From positions 1 to 64,000 of the forward strand of contig JBCCQY010000004.1 of the NCBI GenBank assembly GCA_039208735.1: 64,000 nt of DNA, given 5' to 3'. The translations under genes were made by a program, and so were the position numbers. This document shows positions 51,194-63,140 of this stretch, one piece after another; the stretch's first letter is position 1; each line of letters starts with the position of its first letter. This stretch comes from Myxococcota bacterium. Its GTDB lineage: Bacteria > Myxococcota_A > UBA796 > GCA-2862545. The notes below the pieces were generated by a model. It was not told the DNA's origin. It did no database searches and worked only from the letters and a program-made list of their open reading frames with translations.

Positions 51194-51898
51194 CTACTCG
51201 GCCGGAGGTTCGGCTCGTCCTGAAACGTCCACCATGTCGATGCCCTGGTATTCCTGGGAATAGGCCACGAATCTCCACCCATCGCACGACAGCCCATCGT
51301 CTCGGTACAACGCAAGACCTGGCTCGAGGCGTGCCCATCGGCACCACGGGGCCTCATTGACGAAGCCCTGCGCTTCGGACAGCACGTTTATGCCACGTGG
51401 AGCGTCGACGATAGCGAGCACATGGCCCGTGCTGGCCGCGCGCGCGGAGTGTGGGAGGGGCCCGAAGATCCCAGACGTGTCGCCAACCGTGCCGAGCGAC
51501 CACAACAACAGCGCCGTCGCATCGAGCGGGGGCGGGGTTTCGGCGTACATCACGGGCAGCCCAAAGGCGATCCGAGACCCCTCGGCCCGGAGTTCGAGAG
51601 GGGCCGGGCCCACCCCTTGGGTGTCGGACAACGGTGGAGGCCCTTCGATCGCCATCGCGTACCCAAAGAGGCGAGGTTCGATGTCGGCGGACTGCCACTG
51701 GACGCCCATCTCGTCGTCCGAGATCACCAACCAGGCGACGCCCCCGCGAAACGTGGCCGGGTCTTCGTCTCCATCGAGCAGCGTGCTGTCGAGCCGGCCC
51801 GACAGCGCGAGAAACGGGCCGAAGTCATCGGCCGAACGAATGAGGGCTTGGTCACACCCCGTGGCGGTCAGCCACAAACCCAACCAGGCGGCACGCAT
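51194..51898 (-). CDS. Hypothetical lipoprotein (last gene of the ECF-caspase operon)
   Basis: MRAAWLGLWLTATGC lipobox-like signal; start abuts the upstream stop. Confidence 0.7.
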   Translation of the reverse strand: MRAAWLGLWLTATGCDQALIRSADDFGPFLALSGRLDSTLLDGDEDPATFRGGVAWLVISDDEMGVQWQSADIEPRLFGYAMAIEGPPPLSDTQGVGPAPLELRAEGSRIAFGLPVMYAETPPPLDATALLLWSLGTVGDTSGIFGPLPHSARAASTGHVLAIVDAPRGINVLSEAQGFVNEAPWCRWARLEPGLALYRDDGLSCDGWRFVAYSQEYQGIDMVDVSGRAEPPAE

Positions 51899-52645
51899 TC
51901 AATCGACCTCCGTTTCGACCGCGGATTGGAGGTTGCTTAGGAACGTGTCGTAGTCGGGGTGTTCGGGTTCGATGATCCAAGGCACCTCGGCCGAAGCAGG
52001 CGGCATCATGCCGTCGAGCCACTGGTCGACCCGCAGACCCAGGCGCACCCGAGGGTCGGGGCCATCACCAAGCACCAAGCGTACGGGCTCCGAAACCAAC
52101 GACAGTGCGTCGGGCACCCGGAACTCGACCGTCCGCGACAGGGACGTCTCGTCGGTCGCGACGCAGGCGGTGGCCCGGGCGGCAAACACCGCCTCAGGTC
52201 CGACACTCGCGCCCACGAGTTCGAGGATCGAGGAGGGATAGTCCGCCAATTCGAGGTCCAGCACGATCTCGTCGTCGCTCGTGGCCGGCCCGACAAGGTC
52301 GAGCTGCCGATCGAGCGGCACCGTGAACGTGCGCTCGGTTTCGCCGGTGACGGTCAGCCGGAACTCCGTCAGCTGGAGGTCGACCGCCGTGAAATTTGCA
52401 CTTCGGAGGGGTAGCACGGCAACGTCACCATCCGGGTCGTCGTTGCTGTCCTGGTCGTCGTCGTCGTCGTCGTCCTGGTCGTCATCCCCGTTGCCCTCGG
52501 CGCAGGGATCGACCCCGGGATCTTCGGGTGGCTCGGCGATCACCACGCGAACGGCGAGGCCACCCCGACGAATCGGGGGCGTGAGGTCTGAGCCATCGTC
52601 GCCGGTGCAGGCCACGAAGAGTCCCCAGAAAAGCCACACCCTCAC
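51899..52645 (-). CDS. Hypothetical lipoprotein with an Asp tract
   Basis: MRVWLFWGLFVAC lipobox; DDDQDDDDDDDQD; beta-rich body; GTGA overlap with the caspase stop. Confidence 0.75.
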   Translation of the reverse strand: MRVWLFWGLFVACTGDDGSDLTPPIRRGGLAVRVVIAEPPEDPGVDPCAEGNGDDDQDDDDDDDQDSNDDPDGDVAVLPLRSANFTAVDLQLTEFRLTVTGETERTFTVPLDRQLDLVGPATSDDEIVLDLELADYPSSILELVGASVGPEAVFAARATACVATDETSLSRTVEFRVPDALSLVSEPVRLVLGDGPDPRVRLGLRVDQWLDGMMPPASAEVPWIIEPEHPDYDTFLSNLQSAVETEVD

Positions 52646-54180
52646 CGGTCACCTCGTTGAAAAGAGAGGCCCGCCCGCACCTGAGCGGCGGGTTGAACGA
52701 CGGGATTGCGCGTTCCGTACACCGTGAGGCCTCCGCCGGCGAAGGCCAAGAGCCCCACCGGGCCGGTGAGCGACCACTCGGCCGTCCATCCTAGCAATCC
52801 CCTCCCCAACGGCACCGTGACGGTGCGCGCAGCCGTTTGGTCGCCATACCAGCGTCCCCAGTCGGGGTCGGCGGCTCGTGCGGCGGTCTGGCGGAGGAAC
52901 CCTGCGCCAAAATCCAGCGTGGGGCCTGTCCGCACGCGGTGGCCCCGCACGTCGAGGCCCCACTCCCCATGCACCAGGCCCCAGGTGTCGGTGCCCACCG
53001 CGCGGGTGATGCCAAGCCCCATCTGGCCCCCTTCGACCCCCAACGCGAGGCGATGGCCCCGGCCTGTCGACCGCCGCAGCGACGCGAAGGCGCCAAATCC
53101 ATCGGGCCGCCCTGGTGCGAAGCCAAGCCCCCCACTGGGCCCAACGGCAAACCGCGTGGGCTTAGGATCGAGGAGGCCGCCCTTCGTGCGAACGCCGGGG
53201 TGCGCATAGAGGCGACGGGCCGAGATGATGGCGTATCCTTTGTTCGGAACTACGACTTCGGTCATGGCGGCCCGGCGACCTCGCTCCAGACGGACCAACT
53301 GGTATCGCCCAGGATCGAGGGCCAGGGTTCGTCCGGCTCCGGCGGGGACTTCGGCGGCCACGGCCTTCGCATCGACATCGATCACGAGCACCGGCTTCTC
53401 CACCGGGCCGGTCACCGACAAGCCGCTGGGAGCGTCGACGAGATTGGCGAGCACCAATTCTCCGAGGGACCCCGCCCACCGGGGTCGTTGCACGACGCCA
53501 AGGCCGGCGGCGGTGCGCTCGGTCTGACGCTGGACAAACCCGTACAGTTCGTGAAGCGTGACCTGCCCGTCGCGGTTGTCGTCTGCCGCGCCACGGGCTC
53601 CCGAGACAAAGAAGTGAGTAAAGAGAGCTCCCCGGCGCTGCTCGACTTCGAACGCGAGTTCTTCGGCCCCCGTGCTCGCGATCCAGGCTTCATCGGCGGG
53701 AGGGTCATAGGCAGGGCTTTCGCCGGGAAGCGCGGGCGCATCGGAGACCGCGACCAGCGTAGCCCCTTTCGATCGGAGCATCGTGCCGGCCTGACAGGCG
53801 TCGACGATGAAGACCCGCCGGTCTGCGGGAACAACGCGCGCAGCCGTCTTGAGGGAAGGGATGGGGAGAACGTCTCCCGCGAGGTGGAGTCCCCGTGACG
53901 AAGCGTGGCCCGTGTAGTACACGACCAGCTCCGTCGTACGGCCCTCACGGCGCAAAGCCGAAGCACGGAGCACGGCCTCGCCAAGCGCATCGGTTACCGC
54001 ATCCACGTCCGCCTCGGGGACGCGAAAGAGGTGTTCCGAGGAGACGTCTCCCAAGGCCCGCAACACGTCGGCCACCCGGTCGCCGTCGTCGTCGGCGTAC
54101 CGCAGAGGCACATCGGTGGTCAGGCCCTCGTTGGCGGAAATCACCACCGCGAGCCGAACCAGGGCGGCGGGCAGGCTCAC
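52642..54180 (-). CDS. Caspase-like (peptidase C14) protease with PEGA-like and beta-barrel-like C-terminal regions
   Basis: RLAVVISAN, LRYADDD, YYTGH (His), IVDAC (Cys), DDNRDGQVTLHEL; GTGA overlap with the anti-sigma stop. Confidence 0.9.
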   Translation of the reverse strand: MSLPAALVRLAVVISANEGLTTDVPLRYADDDGDRVADVLRALGDVSSEHLFRVPEADVDAVTDALGEAVLRASALRREGRTTELVVYYTGHASSRGLHLAGDVLPIPSLKTAARVVPADRRVFIVDACQAGTMLRSKGATLVAVSDAPALPGESPAYDPPADEAWIASTGAEELAFEVEQRRGALFTHFFVSGARGAADDNRDGQVTLHELYGFVQRQTERTAAGLGVVQRPRWAGSLGELVLANLVDAPSGLSVTGPVEKPVLVIDVDAKAVAAEVPAGAGRTLALDPGRYQLVRLERGRRAAMTEVVVPNKGYAIISARRLYAHPGVRTKGGLLDPKPTRFAVGPSGGLGFAPGRPDGFGAFASLRRSTGRGHRLALGVEGGQMGLGITRAVGTDTWGLVHGEWGLDVRGHRVRTGPTLDFGAGFLRQTAARAADPDWGRWYGDQTAARTVTVPLGRGLLGWTAEWSLTGPVGLLAFAGGGLTVYGTRNPVVQPAAQVRAGLSFQRGDR

Positions 54181-54815
54181 GGGCGCCTCGTAACCTCGAC
54201 GGCGAAGGACCGGCCGGGATCGAGGTCGGTGTGGCGTCGTCCGAGCAGGGCCTCCTCCGAGGAAGGTTGGTCGGTGAACTGGGCCATGAGCCACTCCTCG
54301 CCGTCGTAGTCGTCGAGGGCAATCGTCAGCTTGAAGCGTTCGCCAGGGTGGACCGGCCGGCCGACCATCAAGGCGGAGACCGAGCCGTCCTCCTGTCGGG
54401 TCCAGACGTCGAGGAACCCTTTTCCGGGGCTGCGAACCACGAGGTTGAGTCGTTCGGTGGCGTTGGCCACGTCGACCTGCAGGCTCCCCATGGGCAGGTA
54501 GCGATCCGGGGTGGGGGAGGGACGGGTCGCGAGGAAGACGAGGAACAACGACGCGGCCAGAGCGAGGGCAGAGGCCCATGGCCACGCACGCTGCACCCAA
54601 GAAGAAGAAGGGGGGTGTGGGCGCAGCGGCGTGGCATGAGCGTTGAAAAAGGCACGGGCATCCGCGAGTTCCTGGTCGGCCTCGGCCAGAGGGCCCGTGC
54701 GGGACGCTTCGACGCGGGCCCGGTCGAGGCCGTCGGAAATGGCGCCCAGCTCGAGCAGATCGAGGTCGATGTCATCCGGGGTGTCTCCCGGAAGAAGGCT
54801 CAGTTGTGGACTCAT
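54177..54815 (-). CDS. Putative transmembrane anti-sigma factor with an extracytoplasmic beta domain (DUF4384-like)
   Basis: Short cytoplasmic helical N-terminus, one TM (WASALALAASLFLVFL), beta-rich C-terminus; ATGA overlap with the sigma stop. Confidence 0.7.
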   Translation of the reverse strand: MSPQLSLLPGDTPDDIDLDLLELGAISDGLDRARVEASRTGPLAEADQELADARAFFNAHATPLRPHPPSSSWVQRAWPWASALALAASLFLVFLATRPSPTPDRYLPMGSLQVDVANATERLNLVVRSPGKGFLDVWTRQEDGSVSALMVGRPVHPGERFKLTIALDDYDGEEWLMAQFTDQPSSEEALLGRRHTDLDPGRSFAVEVTRRP

Positions 54816-55306
54816 GCGGATTCCAGCTTGGTTCGGAGTCGGGATTCGAATTCGGAGCGGGCTCGGCCCACCGTACGGACGGAGATACCCAGGACTTCCG
54901 CAGCGCGTTGATTGGAAAGGCCCTGGAGCCAGGTGAGGAGCACGACCTCTCCCGTGCGTTCATCGACCTCGTTCAACACACGGTGCACCAGGTCGCGATC
55001 GGCATGGGCGCCCTCGGGATGGTGACCGGGTAGCCCTCGAAGGTAGTCGCCATGGGCCACCCGAATCCGCGCCCGATTGCGCCGATTGCGGAGCAGCCAC
55101 AGGCATCGACGCGTCGCGGTCTGGTAGAGCCAGGCCAACGCTTCGGGCAGGCTGCGAATCTCAAAGCCCACCTCGATGGCACGCATGAACGTCCATTGGG
55201 TCACGTCCAACGCCTCCTGGCGGTCGCCGATCATCTGGATGGAGCGGCGGAGAACCAAGGGCCCTGCGCGCTCGTACAGCTCGTCGATGGTGAGGTCAGG
55301 GGTCAT
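54812..55306 (-). CDS. ECF-type sigma-70 factor
   Basis: Region 2 EALDVTQWTFMRA and AWLYQTATRRCL; region 4 QGLSNQRAAEVLGISVRTV. Confidence 0.9.
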   Translation of the reverse strand: MTPDLTIDELYERAGPLVLRRSIQMIGDRQEALDVTQWTFMRAIEVGFEIRSLPEALAWLYQTATRRCLWLLRNRRNRARIRVAHGDYLRGLPGHHPEGAHADRDLVHRVLNEVDERTGEVVLLTWLQGLSNQRAAEVLGISVRTVGRARSEFESRLRTKLESA

Positions 55307-55313
55307 CACGGGT

Positions 55314-55343
55314 CTCAATGCACGGCGCGCCCAGAGTCGGACA
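55314..55343 (-). promoter_or_regulatory. Putative ECF promoter of the sigma operon
   Basis: TGTCCG-N16-GCATTGAG ending 4-7 nt before GTG/ATG (probably leaderless). Confidence 0.75.
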
Positions 55344-55395
55344 CGATTCTCATCGGGACCTTCAACACTACCAAATTGAGAAATCCGACTCGGGT

Positions 55396-55425
55396 TGTCC
55401 GGCTTTTCGAAGCCCGCGCATTGAG
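55396..55425 (+). promoter_or_regulatory. Putative ECF promoter of the Asp-rich lipoprotein gene
   Basis: Second copy of TGTCCG-N16-GCATTGAG, upstream of the AAAGGAGA RBS. Confidence 0.75.
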
Positions 55426-55456
55426 CATGTCGAACGAATGTAAAGGAGACCCGTTC

Positions 55457-56104
55457 ATGCGCCTGTCCACGATTCTTGCCGTGCTCGGTCTGTCCCTGGT
55501 CGCTTGTGAGGATGTCGAGTTGCCGCAGAACGAGCTGCCCGAAGGCGTCTCGCTGCGTGACACTGACAACGACGGCATTCCCGACCTCCAGGACGATGAC
55601 GACGACAACGACGGCATCTCGGATGACCTCGACGATGATGACGATGGCGATGGCATCGACGACGACGACGAGCAGGATGCCGACGGTGACGGCCTCGACG
55701 ACGACGACGACGCCGATGACGACAACGACGGCATCCCCGACGACGAAGATGAAGACGATGACGGCGACGGCATCGATGATGTAGATGAGCCGGATGCTGA
55801 TGGCGATGGCATCGACGATGACCACGACGGCGATGACGACAACGACGGCATCCCCGACGACGAAGACGACGACGATGATGGCGACGGCATCCTGGACGTC
55901 GATGAGCCCGACTCAGATGGCGATGGCATCGACGACGACCACGATGGCGACGATGACAACGATGGCATCAACGATGATGAAGACGATGACGACGACGGCG
56001 ACGGCATCCCCGATTCCGACGAAGGGGACGATGACGGCGATGATGATGATGACGACGACGACGACGACGACGATGACGATCGCGGCGGCTCTTCGGAGGG
56101 TTGA
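55457..56104 (+). CDS. Asp-rich lipoprotein with 12 DxDxDG (thrombospondin type 3-like) repeats
   Basis: MRLSTILAVLGLSLVAC lipobox, strong RBS, tandem 13-aa units, poly-Asp tail. Confidence 0.9.
   Translation: MRLSTILAVLGLSLVACEDVELPQNELPEGVSLRDTDNDGIPDLQDDDDDNDGISDDLDDDDDGDGIDDDDEQDADGDGLDDDDDADDDNDGIPDDEDEDDDGDGIDDVDEPDADGDGIDDDHDGDDDNDGIPDDEDDDDDGDGILDVDEPDSDGDGIDDDHDGDDDNDGINDDEDDDDDGDGIPDSDEGDDDGDDDDDDDDDDDDDDRGGSSEG
55559..56026 (+). repeat. Coding tandem repeat: 12 x 39 nt, arranged as 4 x 117 nt
   Basis: Units DxD(G/N)DG(I/L)xDxxxx; every third unit ends in EQ/EP/EP/EG. Confidence 0.9.
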
Positions 56105-56164
56105 TCGCGTTTGGGGGCGTCCCGGCTCGGCGCGGTAAGAGGCTCCGTGGAGGATCTCGGTCCC

Positions 56165-57046
56165 GTGACGCGCAACGACGCCCCCGTGATGGGCATTGAC
56201 ATCGGTGGAAGTGGCGTCCGGGGGGCGATCGTGACCCCGGACGGCGAGGTGGGCGAGCTGACACGGGTGGCCTTGCAAAACCGCGAGGTCGAGACAGTGT
56301 TGGACGCCATTCGCGAAGTGGTGGGAGACCGACGGCCCCGTGCGATTGGCATCGGCATGCCTGGATTCGTGCGGGCCGCCACGGTCATCGCCTCACCGAA
56401 CTTCCCGAGTTGGCACGAAGTAGACCTGCAAGCCCTGGTTCAAACCCGCTGTGACACGCCCGCGATCGTCATGAATGACGCGAATGCGGCGACCTTCGGA
56501 GCGTACGAGCGGCTTGGCGATGGGCGAGACCTGCTCCTGCTCACCCTAGGCACCGGGGTGGGCGGAGGCGTCGTGAGTCAGCGACGGCTGATCACCGGCC
56601 GCCGAGGGACCGCGGCTGAAGTGGGTCACATCTTTGCCGGTGGGGATGCGCTCTGTGGATGTGGAGGCCGGGGATGCCTCGAGACCTGGTGTTCCACGCG
56701 GGGGCTTGCGCGACAGGCGGCGGAGTGTGGTCATCCCGTGCCCGACGGCCAAAGCGTGGTCGAAGCGGCCGACCGCGGAGAAGCGTGGGCCAAACAGGTG
56801 CTCCACGCGACTGGTGAGGCGCTGGGGCGGGGTCTAGCCTCGCTCACCAACGTGTTTGCGCCGGAGCACATCGTGCTCGCCGGAGGACTTGCGCAGGCCG
56901 AACGTTGGTTGCACGAGCCAGCGCACACGTATTGGCGAGCCCACGCGATTGGGGCAAATGTGGAGGGTGTAACTTGGCGATGGTGGGGAAGGGCTGATGA
57001 CCTTGCCATTCGCGGTTCAGCCTCTGCGGCCCGAGCGATAGGATGA
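56165..57046 (+). CDS. ROK family sugar kinase (glucokinase-like)
   Basis: GIDIGGS, NDANAA, LGTGVGGG, EVGH, CGCGGRGCLE. Confidence 0.93.
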   Translation: MTRNDAPVMGIDIGGSGVRGAIVTPDGEVGELTRVALQNREVETVLDAIREVVGDRRPRAIGIGMPGFVRAATVIASPNFPSWHEVDLQALVQTRCDTPAIVMNDANAATFGAYERLGDGRDLLLLTLGTGVGGGVVSQRRLITGRRGTAAEVGHIFAGGDALCGCGGRGCLETWCSTRGLARQAAECGHPVPDGQSVVEAADRGEAWAKQVLHATGEALGRGLASLTNVFAPEHIVLAGGLAQAERWLHEPAHTYWRAHAIGANVEGVTWRWWGRADDLAIRGSASAARAIG

Positions 57047-58926
57047 CGCGCGTAGCTTTACTCTGGCACTTTCATCAACCGGACTACCGTGACCCTCAAA
57101 CGGGCATTCCGGTCATGCCCTGGACGCGCCTCCACGCGTTGCGTGGATATCGAGATCTGCTGGTCGAAGCTGTCGAATACGACGTGTCGATGACCATCAA
57201 CGTGGTGCCGTCGTTGCTCGACCAGCTGTTGCACTACGCAAACGGGGGAAGCGACACCCACCTCGACCTGACCCGACGCGACGCGGCTTCGTTGTCGCCT
57301 GAAGAAGCCGAGCAAGTGGTGCAGGCGCTACCGACCGGGAATCTCGCGATGACCGAGGCGTGGCCTGACTACGCTCGGCTGCGACGACGCCTTCGCCGAG
57401 GGGCTCCGTACTCGGTGCAAGATCTGCTCGACGTGCAGGTCTGGGGAACGCTGGCGTGGTTTGGGGCGACAGCTCGACGCGATTTCTTGGTGCTTCGCGA
57501 GTTGTCCGACAAGGGACAGGGATTTTCGGAGGCCGACAAGGCCGCCATGCTCGCGGTACAAGACACGATCGTGCGCGCGCTTCCAGACCGGCTCGGCATG
57601 GTCATGGCGGCTCGGGGACCTGCGCTGTCGACCTCGCCTTACTTCCACCCCATTCTGCCGCTGCTCGTCGACGTCCGCCATGCACGACGCAACTTGCCCC
57701 ACCTGCCCGACGACCTTCGCTTCGCCTACCCCGAAGATGCCCGTCGGCAGCTGACCATGGCCCGAGAGCGTCTCACCGAGCTGACCGGGGCTCCGCCAGC
57801 GGGGTTGTGGCCGTCGGAAGGTTCGGTGTCCCCCGAGGTTGTAGGGCTGGCCGGAGAAGTGGGTTTTCGCTGGCTCGTCACCGATCAGGGGGTCCTGGAA
57901 CGGTCGGAGCGTCAGGGGCATTCTGACCAGAAGGGCGGCTGGGATCTTGGCAATGGCATGACCGGGTTCTTTCGCAACACCCACCTCTCTGACGGGATCG
58001 GCTTTCGGTATGCCCACATGGACCCCCATGAGGCGGTGGCCCAGTTCCTCGCCGGCGTGCGAAACGAGGGGCCTGGGGTCGTCACGGTGGCTCTCGATGG
58101 CGAAAACCCATGGGAGACCTACACCGATGCGGGCCGCGCGTTCCGGGCTCGCCTCTATGAGGCTCTCGAGGGAGACATTCGCGCGGTGACGTTCGACGAG
58201 GCCCATGCGGAGCCCCCGGTCGGTACGGTGTCGCGCATCCACACCGGATCGTGGATCGGGGCCAACTTTCAGATCTGGATTGGTCATCCCACGGACCGTG
58301 AGGCTTTTGGGGCGTTGGCAGCGGCCCGCGACGCGGCCGAACAAGCCCCTGAAGCGTTGCGCGAAGCTGCGATGCAGCACCTGCTGCCCGCCGAGGGGTC
58401 GGACTGGAACTGGTGGTACGGCGACGAGTTCCACACCGAATACAACCCGGCGTTTGACGCGCTGTATCGAAGCCATTTGCGAGCCGCCTGGCGGGCGCTT
58501 GGCCAGGAGCCGCCCGAGTCGCTCGATCGGCCCCTGGGGCGTTCGGGGGCGCCCACGGACCGGTCTCCGCTGGGGTTCATCGACGTCACCTGGGACAACG
58601 CATTCTCTACGTTTGCGTGGCGGCGGTCGGGCGCGTTGCGGTCGTGGGGCGGCACGATGGCCCAAGGAGCTGCGGTGACCGAGCTTCGCTACGGGTGGAC
58701 CGTGGATGGAGCCCTCTGGGTGCGGGTGAGCGCGGGTCCCGATCTGCGGCTCTCCGCACCCGATGACCCCGAGGTGCGGGTGCAGGACGGGATCACGGTG
58801 GCTCGATTTGACGGCGGTGCACCCCGCCCCTTTCAATGGGCGGGTCCTGACGGCGTCAGGTGGCCGGCCGAGCCCATCACCCTGGCCCTTCCGGCGCACC
58901 CGACCCTTTCGTGGTGGGACGTGTAG
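57043..58926 (+). CDS. Glycoside hydrolase family 57 (amylopullulanase-like)
   Basis: LWHFHQP, SPYFHPILPL, WPSE, LDGEN, AEGSDWNWW. Confidence 0.93.
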   Translation: MTRVALLWHFHQPDYRDPQTGIPVMPWTRLHALRGYRDLLVEAVEYDVSMTINVVPSLLDQLLHYANGGSDTHLDLTRRDAASLSPEEAEQVVQALPTGNLAMTEAWPDYARLRRRLRRGAPYSVQDLLDVQVWGTLAWFGATARRDFLVLRELSDKGQGFSEADKAAMLAVQDTIVRALPDRLGMVMAARGPALSTSPYFHPILPLLVDVRHARRNLPHLPDDLRFAYPEDARRQLTMARERLTELTGAPPAGLWPSEGSVSPEVVGLAGEVGFRWLVTDQGVLERSERQGHSDQKGGWDLGNGMTGFFRNTHLSDGIGFRYAHMDPHEAVAQFLAGVRNEGPGVVTVALDGENPWETYTDAGRAFRARLYEALEGDIRAVTFDEAHAEPPVGTVSRIHTGSWIGANFQIWIGHPTDREAFGALAAARDAAEQAPEALREAAMQHLLPAEGSDWNWWYGDEFHTEYNPAFDALYRSHLRAAWRALGQEPPESLDRPLGRSGAPTDRSPLGFIDVTWDNAFSTFAWRRSGALRSWGGTMAQGAAVTELRYGWTVDGALWVRVSAGPDLRLSAPDDPEVRVQDGITVARFDGGAPRPFQWAGPDGVRWPAEPITLALPAHPTLSWWDV

Positions 58927-58934
58927 GAGGTCAA

Positions 58935-60059
58935 ATGGGGTGGCTGCTTTGGCTCGGGGCGTGTGCCACCGTGCCTCCCACGCCTGCCGCAGCGCCGCCC
59001 CCGGCTCCCGGCAGTCCCGCTGACGCACTAGATGCGTTCTATCAGAACTATTCCGTCACATTGCCCGAGGTTCCGCCGAGTCCGGCGTGGCCCGACGCGG
59101 TCGACACCCTGTTGTTCGCTTCGTGCTTGCAGCCCTACAAGCCAGCGCCCATTCTCGAGGCGATGCAGGCCACCAAGGCCGATCTGTTCGTGATGCTCGG
59201 CGACAATGTGTATGGCGACGCTCGCGGCGGCGACATGCGCCTACCTGAACTTCGGGAAGCGTACGCCACGCTCGCGGCCCACGAAGAGTTTGCGAACCTG
59301 GTCGGTGCCATCCCCGTCGTCGCCACGTGGGACGACCATGACTACGGCATGAACGACGCGGGAGCCTCGTTTTCGGCTCGCCGATTTGCCGAGCGCATCT
59401 TCGAGACCTTTTGGCGCGTGCCTAACGACGACCCGCGACGGCAGCGCGAAGGGGTCTACGGCGTGCAGACCTTCGGAGCCGAAGGCCGCCGGGTGCAGCT
59501 CGTGTTGCTCGACCTGCGTTCGTTCAAAGACAACTTCGACCCTTCCCCAACCCCCAACCAGCCGGGCACCGAACGCTACGTGCCGTCCGATGACGCCACG
59601 CGGACGTTGCTCGGCCCGACCCAATGGGCGTGGTTGGCCGAGACCCTGGCGGCCCCCGCCGATCTGCGCGTGGTGATTTCGTCGCTGCAGGTGCATGCAG
59701 ATGGACACGGCTACGAGCGTTGGGGACTGTTTCCGGCCGAGCGAGACCGCTTCTACGAGGCGCTGGCCGCGCGAGCCGGAGGCGAGGTGGTGTTGGTCAG
59801 CGGCGACCGTCATCGGGCGGGGATCTACGCTCGTCCCGACCTTGCGGGGGGCCCGTACCCCGAGCTGACCACGTCTTCGCTCAACCTGTCTTTCGGGGGG
59901 AACGAAGAGGCCGGACCGCACCGGTTGGGGCCTACGTTCGTCGATGAGAATTTCGGCACCATGACCATCGACTGGACGGGGCGCACGGTGGGATTGGCGG
60001 TTCACGATGCCAAAGGCAACGTGGTGCTCGACCATTCCGCGACCCTGGGCACTCCGTGA
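58935..60059 (+). CDS. phoD: Alkaline phosphatase D (PhoD) family lipoprotein
   Basis: FASC, GDNVYGD, WDDHDY, LLDLR, SGDRH; AGGAGG RBS; LGAC lipobox. Confidence 0.88.
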   Translation: MGWLLWLGACATVPPTPAAAPPPAPGSPADALDAFYQNYSVTLPEVPPSPAWPDAVDTLLFASCLQPYKPAPILEAMQATKADLFVMLGDNVYGDARGGDMRLPELREAYATLAAHEEFANLVGAIPVVATWDDHDYGMNDAGASFSARRFAERIFETFWRVPNDDPRRQREGVYGVQTFGAEGRRVQLVLLDLRSFKDNFDPSPTPNQPGTERYVPSDDATRTLLGPTQWAWLAETLAAPADLRVVISSLQVHADGHGYERWGLFPAERDRFYEALAARAGGEVVLVSGDRHRAGIYARPDLAGGPYPELTTSSLNLSFGGNEEAGPHRLGPTFVDENFGTMTIDWTGRTVGLAVHDAKGNVVLDHSATLGTP

Positions 60060-60478
60060 GCGGACCCTCGACCGATGCGTTCACCCATCGGCAGATCATT
60101 GCGCTTTCGCAGGTCGATGCAGCAGGGATCCTGTACTTTGCTCGGTTGTTCGAGATTTGCCACCTCGCCTTCGAGCATTGGTTGATCGACGAGGGCCTTC
60201 CGCTCCTGGCGGGCTTGGGCGAAAGTGATGAGCTGATGCCCATCGTGCATGCCGAGGCGGACTATCGGTCCCCGTTGCGACTCGGCCATGTGATCGACGT
60301 TGCGGTTCAGGTGGAAGCCACCGGCCAATCCTCGATCACCTTTGGATTTCGCGTGACCACCCAGGGGCGACTTGCTGCGGTGGCGCGTCACGTTCATGTG
60401 GCCATCGACAAGGCGGACTTCCGATCGCGTCCCTTGCCCGACGCCATCTTGGGCCTTGCCAAGGGAGAACAGCCGTGA
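60056..60478 (+). CDS. Hotdog-fold acyl-CoA thioesterase
   Basis: DAAGILYFA, PIVHAEADYRSPL. Confidence 0.9.
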   Translation: MSGPSTDAFTHRQIIALSQVDAAGILYFARLFEICHLAFEHWLIDEGLPLLAGLGESDELMPIVHAEADYRSPLRLGHVIDVAVQVEATGQSSITFGFRVTTQGRLAAVARHVHVAIDKADFRSRPLPDAILGLAKGEQP

Positions 60479-62160
60479 GTGGATCGTTTTGCCTCGTGCT
60501 CCACGGGCACCTGCCGTGGGTGCTCCACCACGGTCGCTGGCCCCACGGAGAGGACTGGTTGTTCGAGGCGGTCAGCGAGACCTGGCTGCCGATGATCGAG
60601 CTGCTCGATCAATGCCGGGAGGAGGGCCTCCTGCCGCGGTTTACCATCGGGCTCACGCCCATCCTCCTCGAACAGTTGGCGTCGCCCCGACTTCGGGAAG
60701 GCCTTCCGCCGTGGTTGGAAGAGCAGGCGGAACGCGGCCGGCGCGACCGTGCGGAGTTCGAGTCCGAGGGACAGGGCCACATGGCCTGGCTGGCGACCCG
60801 ATGGACAGAGCGGTTTGAACGCCTCCTCGCGCGTTTTGAACAGGCGGATCGCGACATCATCGGCGAGATGCGGCGAGCCTCCGACGAGGGGCTCATCGAG
60901 CTGCTGACGTCGAACGCCACCCATGGCTACCACCCGCTGCTCACCCATGATGCGTGTGGGCGAGCCCAGGTGCGAGCGGGTGTGGCCACCTCGAATCGCC
61001 ACCTGGGGAAGGCTCCGCGAGGCATGTGGCTGCCTGAGTGCGCGTACCGGCCGCCTCGAGGATTTTGGCCGCCCGCGATTCACGGCGATGAGCGGTGGGC
61101 CCAGGGGACGGGGTCGATGGTGGCGGCCGAGGGCATTCGGTACTTCGTTGTCGACTCCCACCTGCTGCACCACGCGACGCCCCAGGCCGTCCTCGTCGGG
61201 CAACGGGCCCAGGCGGTAGGGCCCGAGCAAGCGGGGTGGGACCACCTGCGTGGCTGGAACCACGTGCTCCAACCCCATCGCCTCGTCGAGCAGGAGCGCT
61301 TGCTTGATGTCAGCGTGTTTGCTCGATCACCCAGCGTCAGCGAACAGGTTTGGAGCGGAGCGGTGGGCTACCCCGGCGACGGCCGCTACCTTGAGTTTCA
61401 CAAGCGCCGCGGTCCTCGAGGGCTTCAGTATTGGAAGATCACAGGGCCCAATCGCGATCTGGGAGACAAGGACCTCTACTACCCCGACGACATTGGCTCC
61501 GTTACCCATGCCCAGGCCCAGCACTTTGCCGCGTTGATCCGAGATCAGCTCGGTGGCTTCGAATACCATTCCGGACGCCCAGGCGTGGTCACGGCCCCGT
61601 TTGATGCTGAGTTGTTTGGCCACTGGTGGCATGAGGGGCTGGACTTCTTGCTCGAGGTCGTGCGGGCGATTCACCACGATCCAAGCATCGAGACGGCCAC
61701 GCTCGGTCAGGTGCTGGAGCAGGATCCGCCCGACAAAGCGGTGTCGTTGCCTGAAGGGTCCTGGGGGGAAGAGGGCGACCATCGCGTCTGGCAGAACGAC
61801 GAGTTGCATTTCTACTGGCAGGTCGAGGTCCGAGCCGAAGATCGATTCATGGACCTCTGGCATCGCGCGCCATGGCGGGACGTCGAACCCGTACGGGAGC
61901 TTCTCGAAGAAGCAGGTCGCCAGTTGCTGTTGCTTCAGGCATCGGACTGGCCGTTCGTGATCTCGACCGGAGGAGCTGTGGATTACGGGCTTCGACGCAT
62001 TTTCCACCATGCCTCATTGTTCGATGATCTCTGCAATGGTGTGGAGGATCGCATCGCGCATCCCGAACGAGCGGCCGACCCCGTCGTCGAGGCGGCGCTA
62101 CAGACCTCGCGGCTGCGCGACGCCGTCTTCCCCGACCTGGAGTTGGCCTGGTGGAGCTAA
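60475..62160 (+). CDS. GH57 1,4-alpha-glucan branching enzyme (DUF1957 C-terminus)
   Basis: LVLHGHLPWV, ATHGY, WLPEC, FDAELFGHWWHEG, ASDWPF. Confidence 0.93.
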   Translation: MSGSFCLVLHGHLPWVLHHGRWPHGEDWLFEAVSETWLPMIELLDQCREEGLLPRFTIGLTPILLEQLASPRLREGLPPWLEEQAERGRRDRAEFESEGQGHMAWLATRWTERFERLLARFEQADRDIIGEMRRASDEGLIELLTSNATHGYHPLLTHDACGRAQVRAGVATSNRHLGKAPRGMWLPECAYRPPRGFWPPAIHGDERWAQGTGSMVAAEGIRYFVVDSHLLHHATPQAVLVGQRAQAVGPEQAGWDHLRGWNHVLQPHRLVEQERLLDVSVFARSPSVSEQVWSGAVGYPGDGRYLEFHKRRGPRGLQYWKITGPNRDLGDKDLYYPDDIGSVTHAQAQHFAALIRDQLGGFEYHSGRPGVVTAPFDAELFGHWWHEGLDFLLEVVRAIHHDPSIETATLGQVLEQDPPDKAVSLPEGSWGEEGDHRVWQNDELHFYWQVEVRAEDRFMDLWHRAPWRDVEPVRELLEEAGRQLLLLQASDWPFVISTGGAVDYGLRRIFHHASLFDDLCNGVEDRIAHPERAADPVVEAALQTSRLRDAVFPDLELAWWS

Positions 62161-63140
62161 ATCGCGAAATTCGCCTCGATCCCCTGACCGGTGAGGCGGT
62201 GGTGTTGTCGGAAGCTCGGGCGGGGATTGCCGCGCCGGAACGACCCCTCGTCGAGCCCGACCCTTGCCCATTTTGCCCGGGGAATGAGGAACACACGGAA
62301 CCCACCATCGAAGCCATCGTCGATGAAGACGGGGTCTGGTTGGCCCGAGCATTTGCCAATCGCAATCCCATGCTGGTGGTCGAGAAACCCCGGGATGTGC
62401 ATGAGCAGGGTGTGTTCTCCTACATGGCAGGGCTTGGGGCCCATGAGGTCATCGTCGAGTCTCGTGCGCACCATCCGTTGCACGAGCAGCCGCCGGAGGC
62501 CCAAACGAACGGGCTTCGTTTGGCCACCCGACGCCTCGCCGACCTAAGCGGCGATACGCGATTGGAAGCGGTGGTGTGGTTCCGCAACGAGGGTCGGCGG
62601 GCGGGGGCGAGTCAGCGCCATCCGCACGCCCAGGTCGTCGGATTGCCCTTCGTGCCTGCACGGTGGCAGCAGATGGCCCAGCGGGCTGCGACTCACCACC
62701 GGCGCTACGGACGCTCGCTGCTCGGTGCAGTGCTCGAGCAGGAGCATGAGGACGGCCGGCGCATCGTGATGCGAGACGGACCCATCACCGCACTTTGCCC
62801 CTACGCAAGCCAGCAACCCTACGAAGTCTGGCTGGTTCCCGACGACCCAGGGCCTCGATTCGCGGATGCGTCCGACGACGAACTCGATGCGCTGTCCCGG
62901 CTCTTGGGGCCGCTTGCTCGCGCAGTTGGTCAGGCATCGGGCATGCCCGTTTCCTACAACCTCGTGGCCCTCGGCGCTCCCGAACGCAACCACGAGCCCG
63001 GGCTTGGCTGGCACTTGCGCTTTTTGCCGAACCTCATCCGGGGGGCCGGCTTTGAGCGCAACACCGGCGCGGCGGTCCATGGGACTTTCCCCGAGGCCGC
63101 GGCGACAGCGATTCGTGGGGCCTGGGACGCTACGGCGTAG
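62151..63140 (+). CDS. galT: Galactose-1-phosphate uridylyltransferase-like protein
   Basis: CPFCPGNE, HEVIVES, GASQRHPHAQ, AGFE. Confidence 0.88.
   Translation: MELNREIRLDPLTGEAVVLSEARAGIAAPERPLVEPDPCPFCPGNEEHTEPTIEAIVDEDGVWLARAFANRNPMLVVEKPRDVHEQGVFSYMAGLGAHEVIVESRAHHPLHEQPPEAQTNGLRLATRRLADLSGDTRLEAVVWFRNEGRRAGASQRHPHAQVVGLPFVPARWQQMAQRAATHHRRYGRSLLGAVLEQEHEDGRRIVMRDGPITALCPYASQQPYEVWLVPDDPGPRFADASDDELDALSRLLGPLARAVGQASGMPVSYNLVALGAPERNHEPGLGWHLRFLPNLIRGAGFERNTGAAVHGTFPEAAATAIRGAWDATA

Follow-up and report, generated by a model that had tools for sequence, protein, structure and literature searches.

Introduction

About half of the ECF sigma factors autoregulate their own expression through bipartite motifs, which, in the part of PMC7776599 drawn on here, consist of −35 and −10 boxes separated by a spacer such as the 16-nt one and lie before the sigma gene, its operon or a divergent gene, with a few residues of the sigma factor setting the specificity, including the pair formed by RpoE Arg171 and the −31 base. 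The supplement of PMC7826278, as far as it was covered, describes TGTCA-type −35 and CGT[C/T]-type −10 elements for ECF41 (TGTCACA / CGTC) and ECF37 (TGTCAACC / CGTT), and reports that ECF41 controls only itself and one neighbouring gene. The same source describes ECF25, a group that includes Deltaproteobacteria, in which a single-pass anti-sigma, sometimes carrying a DUF4384 domain, is encoded at position +1 and the promoter reads GGAAC / GTC. Operons joining a sigma-70-family gene and a C14 peptidase gene were noted in 2012 in Myxococcus xanthus, Anaeromyxobacter, Haliangium and Sorangium, and the sections of that paper covered treat cell death rather than signalling (PMC3501461). The closest studied case, to judge by the portion of PMC11506125 used here, is the DdvS/DdvA pair of M. 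xanthus, a self-expressed ECF factor with a transmembrane anti-sigma for which a caspase-like proteolytic first step has been proposed.

The window analysed here, a stretch of 64,000 nucleotides from a Myxococcota bacterium (contig JBCCQY010000004.1 of assembly GCA_039208735.1), contains an ECF sigma gene, a divergent lipoprotein gene and between them two copies of a bipartite motif. The motif has a fixed spacer, stands in the sense orientation and is conserved before the sigma transcription unit, as in the autoregulated ECF promoters, while the window sigma clade differs from the factors of PMC7776599 (part covered) in being confined, among the genomes searched, to one family of uncultured Myxococcota. 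Relatives of the window sigma have TGTCAC-N16-GCGTT, which nearly matches the ECF41/ECF37 type, whereas the window copies read TGTCCG / GCATT. ECF41 factors have a SnoaL-like C-terminal extension. The window sigma ends at 164 aa without such an extension, and a predicted membrane anti-sigma and a caspase adjoin it; ECF41 has, as we understand the part of PMC8999054 covered, no anti-sigma. Assignment to ECF41 was rejected on account of the length, the neighbouring anti-sigma gene and the promoter, and assignment to ECF25 on account of the promoter. No assignment to ECF216, ECF220 or ECF267 could be made, the comparison being with the group descriptions. The sigma and C14 peptidase genes of the window share an operon, as in PMC3501461, but the promoter, the anti-sigma, the barrel domain and the target genes have no counterpart in the covered part of that paper. 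Unlike DdvA, which carries a TPR-CHAT protease within the anti-sigma itself and has CBASS/CRISPR defence as its output (PMC11506125, part covered), the window module encodes its C14 protease, for which a barrel is predicted, apart from the anti-sigma, and its predicted output is acidic repeat surface proteins. Membership in the DdvS/DdvA type was rejected because the window anti-sigma is of 212 aa, matches no Pfam family and has no large periplasmic TPR-CHAT part. The supplement text of PMC7826278 that was searched holds no caspase-linked ECF group, and PMC8999054 lists no matching group in the part covered. The literature searched, which took in part of the PMC7826278 supplement and stopped short of the PMC7776599 datasets, contained no description of the motif or of the sigma clade. 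Relative to this literature the motif is a new member of the autoregulated ECF promoters, the design itself being ordinary.

Results

Genes of the locus

The genes flanking the intergenic region are listed below.

51194..51898, minus strand: second lipoprotein of unknown function, kept in most orthologous cassettes
51899..52645, minus strand: lipoprotein of unknown function whose gene and that of the caspase are translationally coupled (no Pfam match)
52642..54180, minus strand: caspase-family (C14) protease, 512 aa, with a beta-sandwich and, at its C-terminus, a beta region of eight strands (Pfam, alignment, structure model)
54177..54815, minus strand: predicted single-pass anti-sigma, 212 aa, with a DUF4384-like outer domain (alignment; complex model with the sigma factor)
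54812..55306, minus strand: ECF sigma factor, 164 aa, with an in-frame GTG at 55309 as alternative start and Gly147 after the TV motif of region 4 (Pfam, TIGR02937)
55442..55449, plus strand: Shine-Dalgarno-like AAAGGAGA 5′ of the lipoprotein ATG (sequence)
55457..56104, plus strand: Asp-rich lipoprotein, 215 aa, with an LVAC lipobox and repeats of the DxDxDG type; predicted to be expressed from the rightward promoter (no Pfam match)

The five leftward genes stand in the order sigma, anti-sigma, caspase and two lipoproteins, and their start and stop codons overlap or abut throughout. The sigma factor contains regions 2 and 4 only, both above the cut-off (Sigma70_r2, 31.5 bits; Sigma70_r4_2, 33.1 bits), and scores 56.5 against TIGR02937, the cut-off of which is 42.9. 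Its own genome contains 22 matches to it.

A hydrophobic segment is present in the anti-sigma alignment. DUF4384 was matched weakly in 4/16 anti-sigma members, and the window protein gave no Pfam match, DUF4384 included. When the sigma factor was modelled with residues 1–75 of the anti-sigma, the complex scored 0.83, while the best control scored 0.01; the pLDDT of the partner was 84 and at least 90% of the contacts agreed between runs. Of the solved complexes, 116 of 157 reached the mark applied to this score, as did two of 215 mismatched pairs; these counts are only a rough guide where own alignments are used, and passing the mark may reflect likeness to solved pairs. The model predicts that the cytoplasmic N-terminus of the membrane protein binds the sigma factor. 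The window anti-sigma has LPMG where its orthologs have R-x-M-G, and about 13 residues of the outer domain are missing in frame. Possibly the window copy is degenerate or under a different regulation. A frameshift was sought in three frames and rejected, as none was found.

The caspase matches Peptidase_C14 with 30.1 bits (cut-off 21.4), and its His92 and Cys129 are invariant in 15 sequences. Its structure model (mean pLDDT 86) shows a caspase fold, a beta-sandwich and eight long C-terminal strands, which are predicted to form an outer-membrane barrel. The barrel reading comes from the predicted secondary structure, because a fold search with the model gave only caspase/legumain-fold proteins among the matches listed. 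The window caspase and several orthologs have no clear signal peptide and other orthologs have one; a barrel would need export. Nine caspase homologs are encoded in the genome, eight of them adjoining an ECF gene. The eight further homologs lie on contigs C77, C30, C20, C50, C1, C55, C14 and C235, and seven of these have an ECF gene and a candidate anti-sigma gene beside them; the C235 copy is near a contig end.

Downstream of the Asp-rich lipoprotein gene, ROK-family kinase and GH57 genes occupy 56111–63140 on the plus strand. No terminator-like site was found between, and it is possible that the rightward promoter reads through into these genes. No ROK homolog was present in the 12 orthologous loci examined.

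Two exact copies of a bipartite motif lie back to back

The first-pass annotation had described the motif TGTCCG-N16-GCATTGAG on the minus strand at 55343–55314 and on the plus strand at 55396–55425. Coordinates, strands, the identity of the 6 + 8 bases and the 16-nt length of both spacers were all exact, and no match to the pattern arose in 100 shuffles of the 64-kb window. The spacers mostly differ, as had been said, being identical at 7/16 positions. The core elements are the following.

55317..55321, minus strand: GCATT, the predicted −10 box for leftward transcription, separated by 16 nt from its −35 box (sequence; ortholog comparison)
55338..55343, minus strand: TGTCCG, the predicted −35 box for leftward transcription of the sigma operon (sequence; kept in orthologs)
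55396..55401, plus strand: TGTCCG, the predicted −35 box for rightward transcription of the Asp-rich lipoprotein gene; 52 bp separate the two −35 boxes
55418..55422, plus strand: GCATT, the predicted −10 box for rightward transcription (sequence; ortholog comparison)

In the whole assembly (9,398,677 bases in 288 contigs, 9.4 Mb), the exact 14-base pattern occurs twice, both times at the sigma/lipoprotein intergenic site, and none of the other spacer lengths between 10 and 23 gave a match. Since the motif had been picked post hoc, a pattern-free background was also computed, in which any inverted 6 + 8 pair with a spacer of 14–20 nt and a spacer identity of at most 60% was accepted. Such a pair was found in 2 of 1173 other divergent intergenic regions, a set from which the window's own region is absent owing to the simple gene caller having missed the window sigma gene. 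One of the two background pairs, GGTCACAC-N15-CTCCAAAC at G000:C47:54808–54935 of the same genome, is likewise bipartite and back to back; it has two tandem ECF-like genes on one side and a divergent lipoprotein gene on the other, and is probably another autoregulated ECF promoter pair.

The region from 55250 to 56300 contained no sigma-70 consensus promoter, and no terminator was found near the motif pair. Short sequences resembling GAGAA(A)TC(C)G were seen upstream of both −35 boxes, at 55376–55395 on the plus strand and 55344–55352 on the minus strand, and could be an UP-like element or the relic of an inverted duplication. The sequence TCCGACTC recurs inverted and adds to the low folding energy of the DNA.

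The motif is conserved before orthologous sigma genes

Orthologs of the window sigma were found in 14 of the 182 genomes of the class, all of them in one family, and in metagenome contigs; the clade had a support of 99 in a quick tree. No member outside this family (f1) appeared in the class (182 genomes) or in the phylum sample of 401 genomes, and 62 further homologous proteins are known as sequences that lack gene context. For the comparison, 103 distinct ECF loci were used, 20 of them from the focal clade (one of these without upstream DNA; L091 and L124 in the set are near-duplicates), and the 200 nt before each sigma gene were searched with TG[TGA]C[CAG][GC]-N16-GC[AG][TC]T.

The motif was present within 200 nt 5′ of the sigma gene at 12 of the 19 clade loci with upstream DNA and at none of the 83 other ECF loci. 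At the remaining seven, a co-directional gene for an acidic protein lies upstream of the sigma gene and the motif stands at the head of that unit. Thus, the motif follows the gene order, and it precedes the sigma transcription unit at 19/19 loci, the outcome of the check upstream of orthologous sigma genes that the first-pass annotation had proposed. Placement was also specific to the spacer: in 18 clade loci (200 kb), 22 of the 41 spacer-16 matches ended at most 60 nt from a called start, whereas only 5 of the 124 matches with ten alternative spacer lengths did so. The base composition of the pattern is partly circular, because the pattern was widened on the same loci, but position and spacer are not. 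A matrix built from 23 sites of other genomes, two close relatives among them and the window's genome omitted, ranked the window sites first and fourth genome-wide.

The conserved core is TG[T/G]CCG-N16-GC[A/G][T/C]T. The 8-base −10 box proposed at first was too long: its conserved part is GC[AG][TC]T, and the GAG that follows GCATT in the leftward copy (55316–55314) carries little information across orthologs, the terminal GAG being shared with the closest relative, G001, only.

Divergent loci with enough DNA have two motif copies, with −35 boxes 0 to 54 bp apart. At L118:7810–7811 the divergent −35 boxes abut (0 bp), and at L123:13011–13016 they are 4 bp apart; because of this proximity two polymerases probably cannot sit there together, and the two directions would therefore compete.

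Predicted start sites and leader

For numbering we assumed the RpoE-style −10 register, in which +1 lies about 9 nt after GCATT. Read in this way, transcription would start at about 55309–55306 leftward (55308 ± 2) and at 55430–55432 rightward (55431 ± 2). The minus copy ends 4 nt before the GTG at 55309 and 7 nt before the ATG at 55306 with no Shine-Dalgarno sequence between, exactly as first noted, and the plus copy is 31 nt 5′ of the ATG at 55457. The start codon follows GCATT by 9–11 nt, with no Shine-Dalgarno sequence, in 7 of the 12 sigma-proximal copies (7 nt if the GTG of the window is used), while in the other five it is 12–20 nt away and four of these have a purine-rich site. On the strength of the seven copies it is plausible that the sigma mRNA is leaderless or nearly so in the sub-lineage to which the window belongs.

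Extent of the predicted regulon and target genes

The motif had been supposed to define a sigma regulon, a claim that the genome scan did not sustain. The rival it implies is that the cognate promoter heads a larger dispersed regulon through looser sites, such as C1:141580 and C118:6161. Several matches to the loose pattern are indeed intergenic and correctly placed, one off-locus strict match in G001 lies between divergent genes, and in G023 and G035 additional copies stand ahead of other genes in the vicinity, a 7TM-transglutaminase / ATP-grasp operon among them. Against this, the upstream intergenic matches, with the sigma-side site of the window uncounted, numbered 15 at spacer 16 and 8–17 at the other spacers, or 4 against 1–6 with the strict pattern, so that spacer 16 stayed within the range of the others; whole-genome counts of the loose pattern were likewise flat across spacers. 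The strict motif is concentrated at the locus, where 3/5 TGTCAC-N16-GCRTT matches of G023 (15 matches with a looser ending) and 2/3 strict matches of G001 are found; away from it, most G023 matches have the ending GCGCT and are placed within genes or elsewhere than ahead of a start. A dispersed regulon is accordingly improbable in our estimate. Since no dispersed targets were found, the regulon appears to be local, its own gene set and the neighbouring lipoprotein gene being the only supported targets, and the few single off-locus candidates are indistinguishable from chance.

Some individual sites may be recorded here. At G000:C1:141580 on the minus strand, TGTCCC-N16-GCGTT and a good ribosome-binding site precede a run of genes labelled TadG/TadE-like from a reading of the sequence; the site is a candidate target or may belong to another sigma factor. 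At L121:3632 and 4909 and at L120:10087, extra motif copies are located downstream of the cassette before another lipoprotein gene, and L121 has an extra copy before the 7TM-transglutaminase / ATP-grasp operon as well.

Of 16 downstream proteins scanned, seven matched TSP3_bac, TSP_3 or MopE repeats above the cut-off and five, that of the window included, had no domain match; the remainder comprised OmpA, a weakly matched carboxypeptidase-regulatory domain, and 7TM-transglutaminase and ATP-grasp proteins. The targets in relatives are for the most part different exported proteins, acidic and with TSP3 or MopE repeats. As the downstream proteins of relatives fall into different families, the target gene appears to have been swapped often while the promoter stayed. 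We take the TSP3/MopE repeats, from the family names and from general knowledge, to bind calcium or other metals, and the Asp-rich lipoprotein of the window is probably calcium-binding.

The adjacent sigma factor as the probable reader of the motif

Bases of the −35 box that vary among relatives appear to change with the sigma factor encoded beside them. Among 151 sigma columns, residue 147 gave the best scores for the fifth and sixth positions of the motif (z 6.3 and 7.0). A Gly at this residue accompanies CG in 10/10 cases, Ile/Leu/Thr accompany AC in 5/5 and Asn/Val accompany GC in 2/2, while the two sigma factors with Ala147 differ at position 5 (AG or CG). This covariation corresponds to three changes on a quick tree and two to three independent pairs, all concordant and too few for significance, and Val143 scores nearly as high. 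Residue 147 follows the TV motif of the recognition helix, as RpoE Arg171 does; the equivalence leans on an ungapped alignment of the sister clade, because a pairwise profile alignment to RpoE places a 4-residue gap after TV. Mutagenesis, as given in the part of PMC7776599 covered, showed that the Arg171 position of RpoE sets the specificity for the −31 base. In the sister clade of sigma-caspase modules, 19 of the 20 members carry another motif, TTTC-N17-GGGTC. That clade includes L004 (G000:C14) and 18 other loci, e.g. L127, L128, L032 and L033; a match at L057, a locus with no upstream DNA, was a slicing artefact and was left out. Sites resembling TTTC-N17-GGGTC precede several lipoprotein genes on other contigs of the window's genome in numbers near background, and the sister motif possibly has a dispersed regulon.

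A real promoter read by a sigma factor encoded elsewhere, for instance an ECF41- or ECF37-like one, would account for the likeness of the architecture to those groups (PMC7826278, part covered) and could draw on any of the 22 matches to the window sigma in the genome. Locus L121, where the sigma has Thr147, would also suit it, since two TGTCCG copies that misfit residue 147 of its own sigma lie downstream beside its own TGTCAC copy. This explanation is nevertheless quite unlikely, given that the motif is restricted to the loci of one sigma clade, changes with residue 147 of the adjacent sigma and is not enriched elsewhere in the genome. It is scarcely credible that the pair makes up a single operator, an inverted repeat bound by a dimeric transcription factor, or else a cruciform or hairpin. 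The intergenic region does fold better as single-stranded DNA than its shuffles do (z −3.05) and the spacers share seven of 16 bases, but among relatives the −35 boxes are anywhere between 0 and 54 bp apart, single sense-orientation copies precede co-directional operons, and the 16-nt spacing is fixed while the spacer sequence is free.

We therefore return to the adjacent ECF sigma, which very probably reads both copies, giving positive feedback on its own operon and induction of the lipoprotein. The original suggestion of a cognate ECF promoter is upheld by the clade-restricted motif, its spacer-specific placement and the covariation of residue 147, the last from few independent pairs, and the proposed tie between the Asp-rich lipoprotein and the sigma system gains from the divergent copy being kept at orthologous loci.

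Discussion

The arrangement suggests a simple circuit. The adjacent ECF sigma would read the divergent promoter pair leftward into its own operon and rightward into the Asp-rich lipoprotein gene, its region 4 binding TGTCCG (at about −35 to −30) and its region 2 opening GCATT (at about −13 to −9). A near-leaderless sigma message combined with the strong ribosome-binding site of the lipoprotein would yield little regulator and much output. In the resting state the membrane anti-sigma would hold the sigma factor; once released, this would amplify itself and also make more anti-sigma, by which the switch would be reset.

As to the trigger, the odds seem about even that the co-encoded, barrel-anchored caspase cuts the anti-sigma after an envelope signal and so frees the sigma factor. 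In favour of the cleavage step, most anti-sigmas carry an R-x-[MK]-G motif immediately beyond the membrane segment on its outer side, the caspase has this motif twice, and orthocaspases cleave after basic residues (PMC6426788, part covered). Against it, Leu replaces the Arg of the motif in the window anti-sigma and the residues that follow the motif (about 13) are absent, R-x-[MK]-G is found in only three of seven paralogous anti-sigmas, and a clear signal peptide is lacking in the window caspase. More broadly, it is conceivable, and we put it forward tentatively, that the promoter is the output of an uncharacterised trans-envelope pathway in which an outer-membrane caspase cuts the anti-sigma and thereby induces interchangeable calcium-binding surface proteins, forming a calcium- or surface-sensing loop.

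The motif shows which output one module of sigma factor, anti-sigma and caspase would have. That the promoter stays while unrelated acidic repeat targets are swapped favours a role in calcium or metal binding on the surface of the cell over one in cell death. The promoter offers a ready reporter for whether the caspase activates the sigma factor, residue 147 provides a natural check on the published ECF specificity code, and the compact bidirectional promoter could serve as an orthogonal part. If the trans-envelope reading is true, the promoter together with the natural Gly/Ile switch at position 147 would be the first direct reporter for sigma-linked caspase signalling in myxobacteria, and each of the paralogous modules would be insulated by its own motif.
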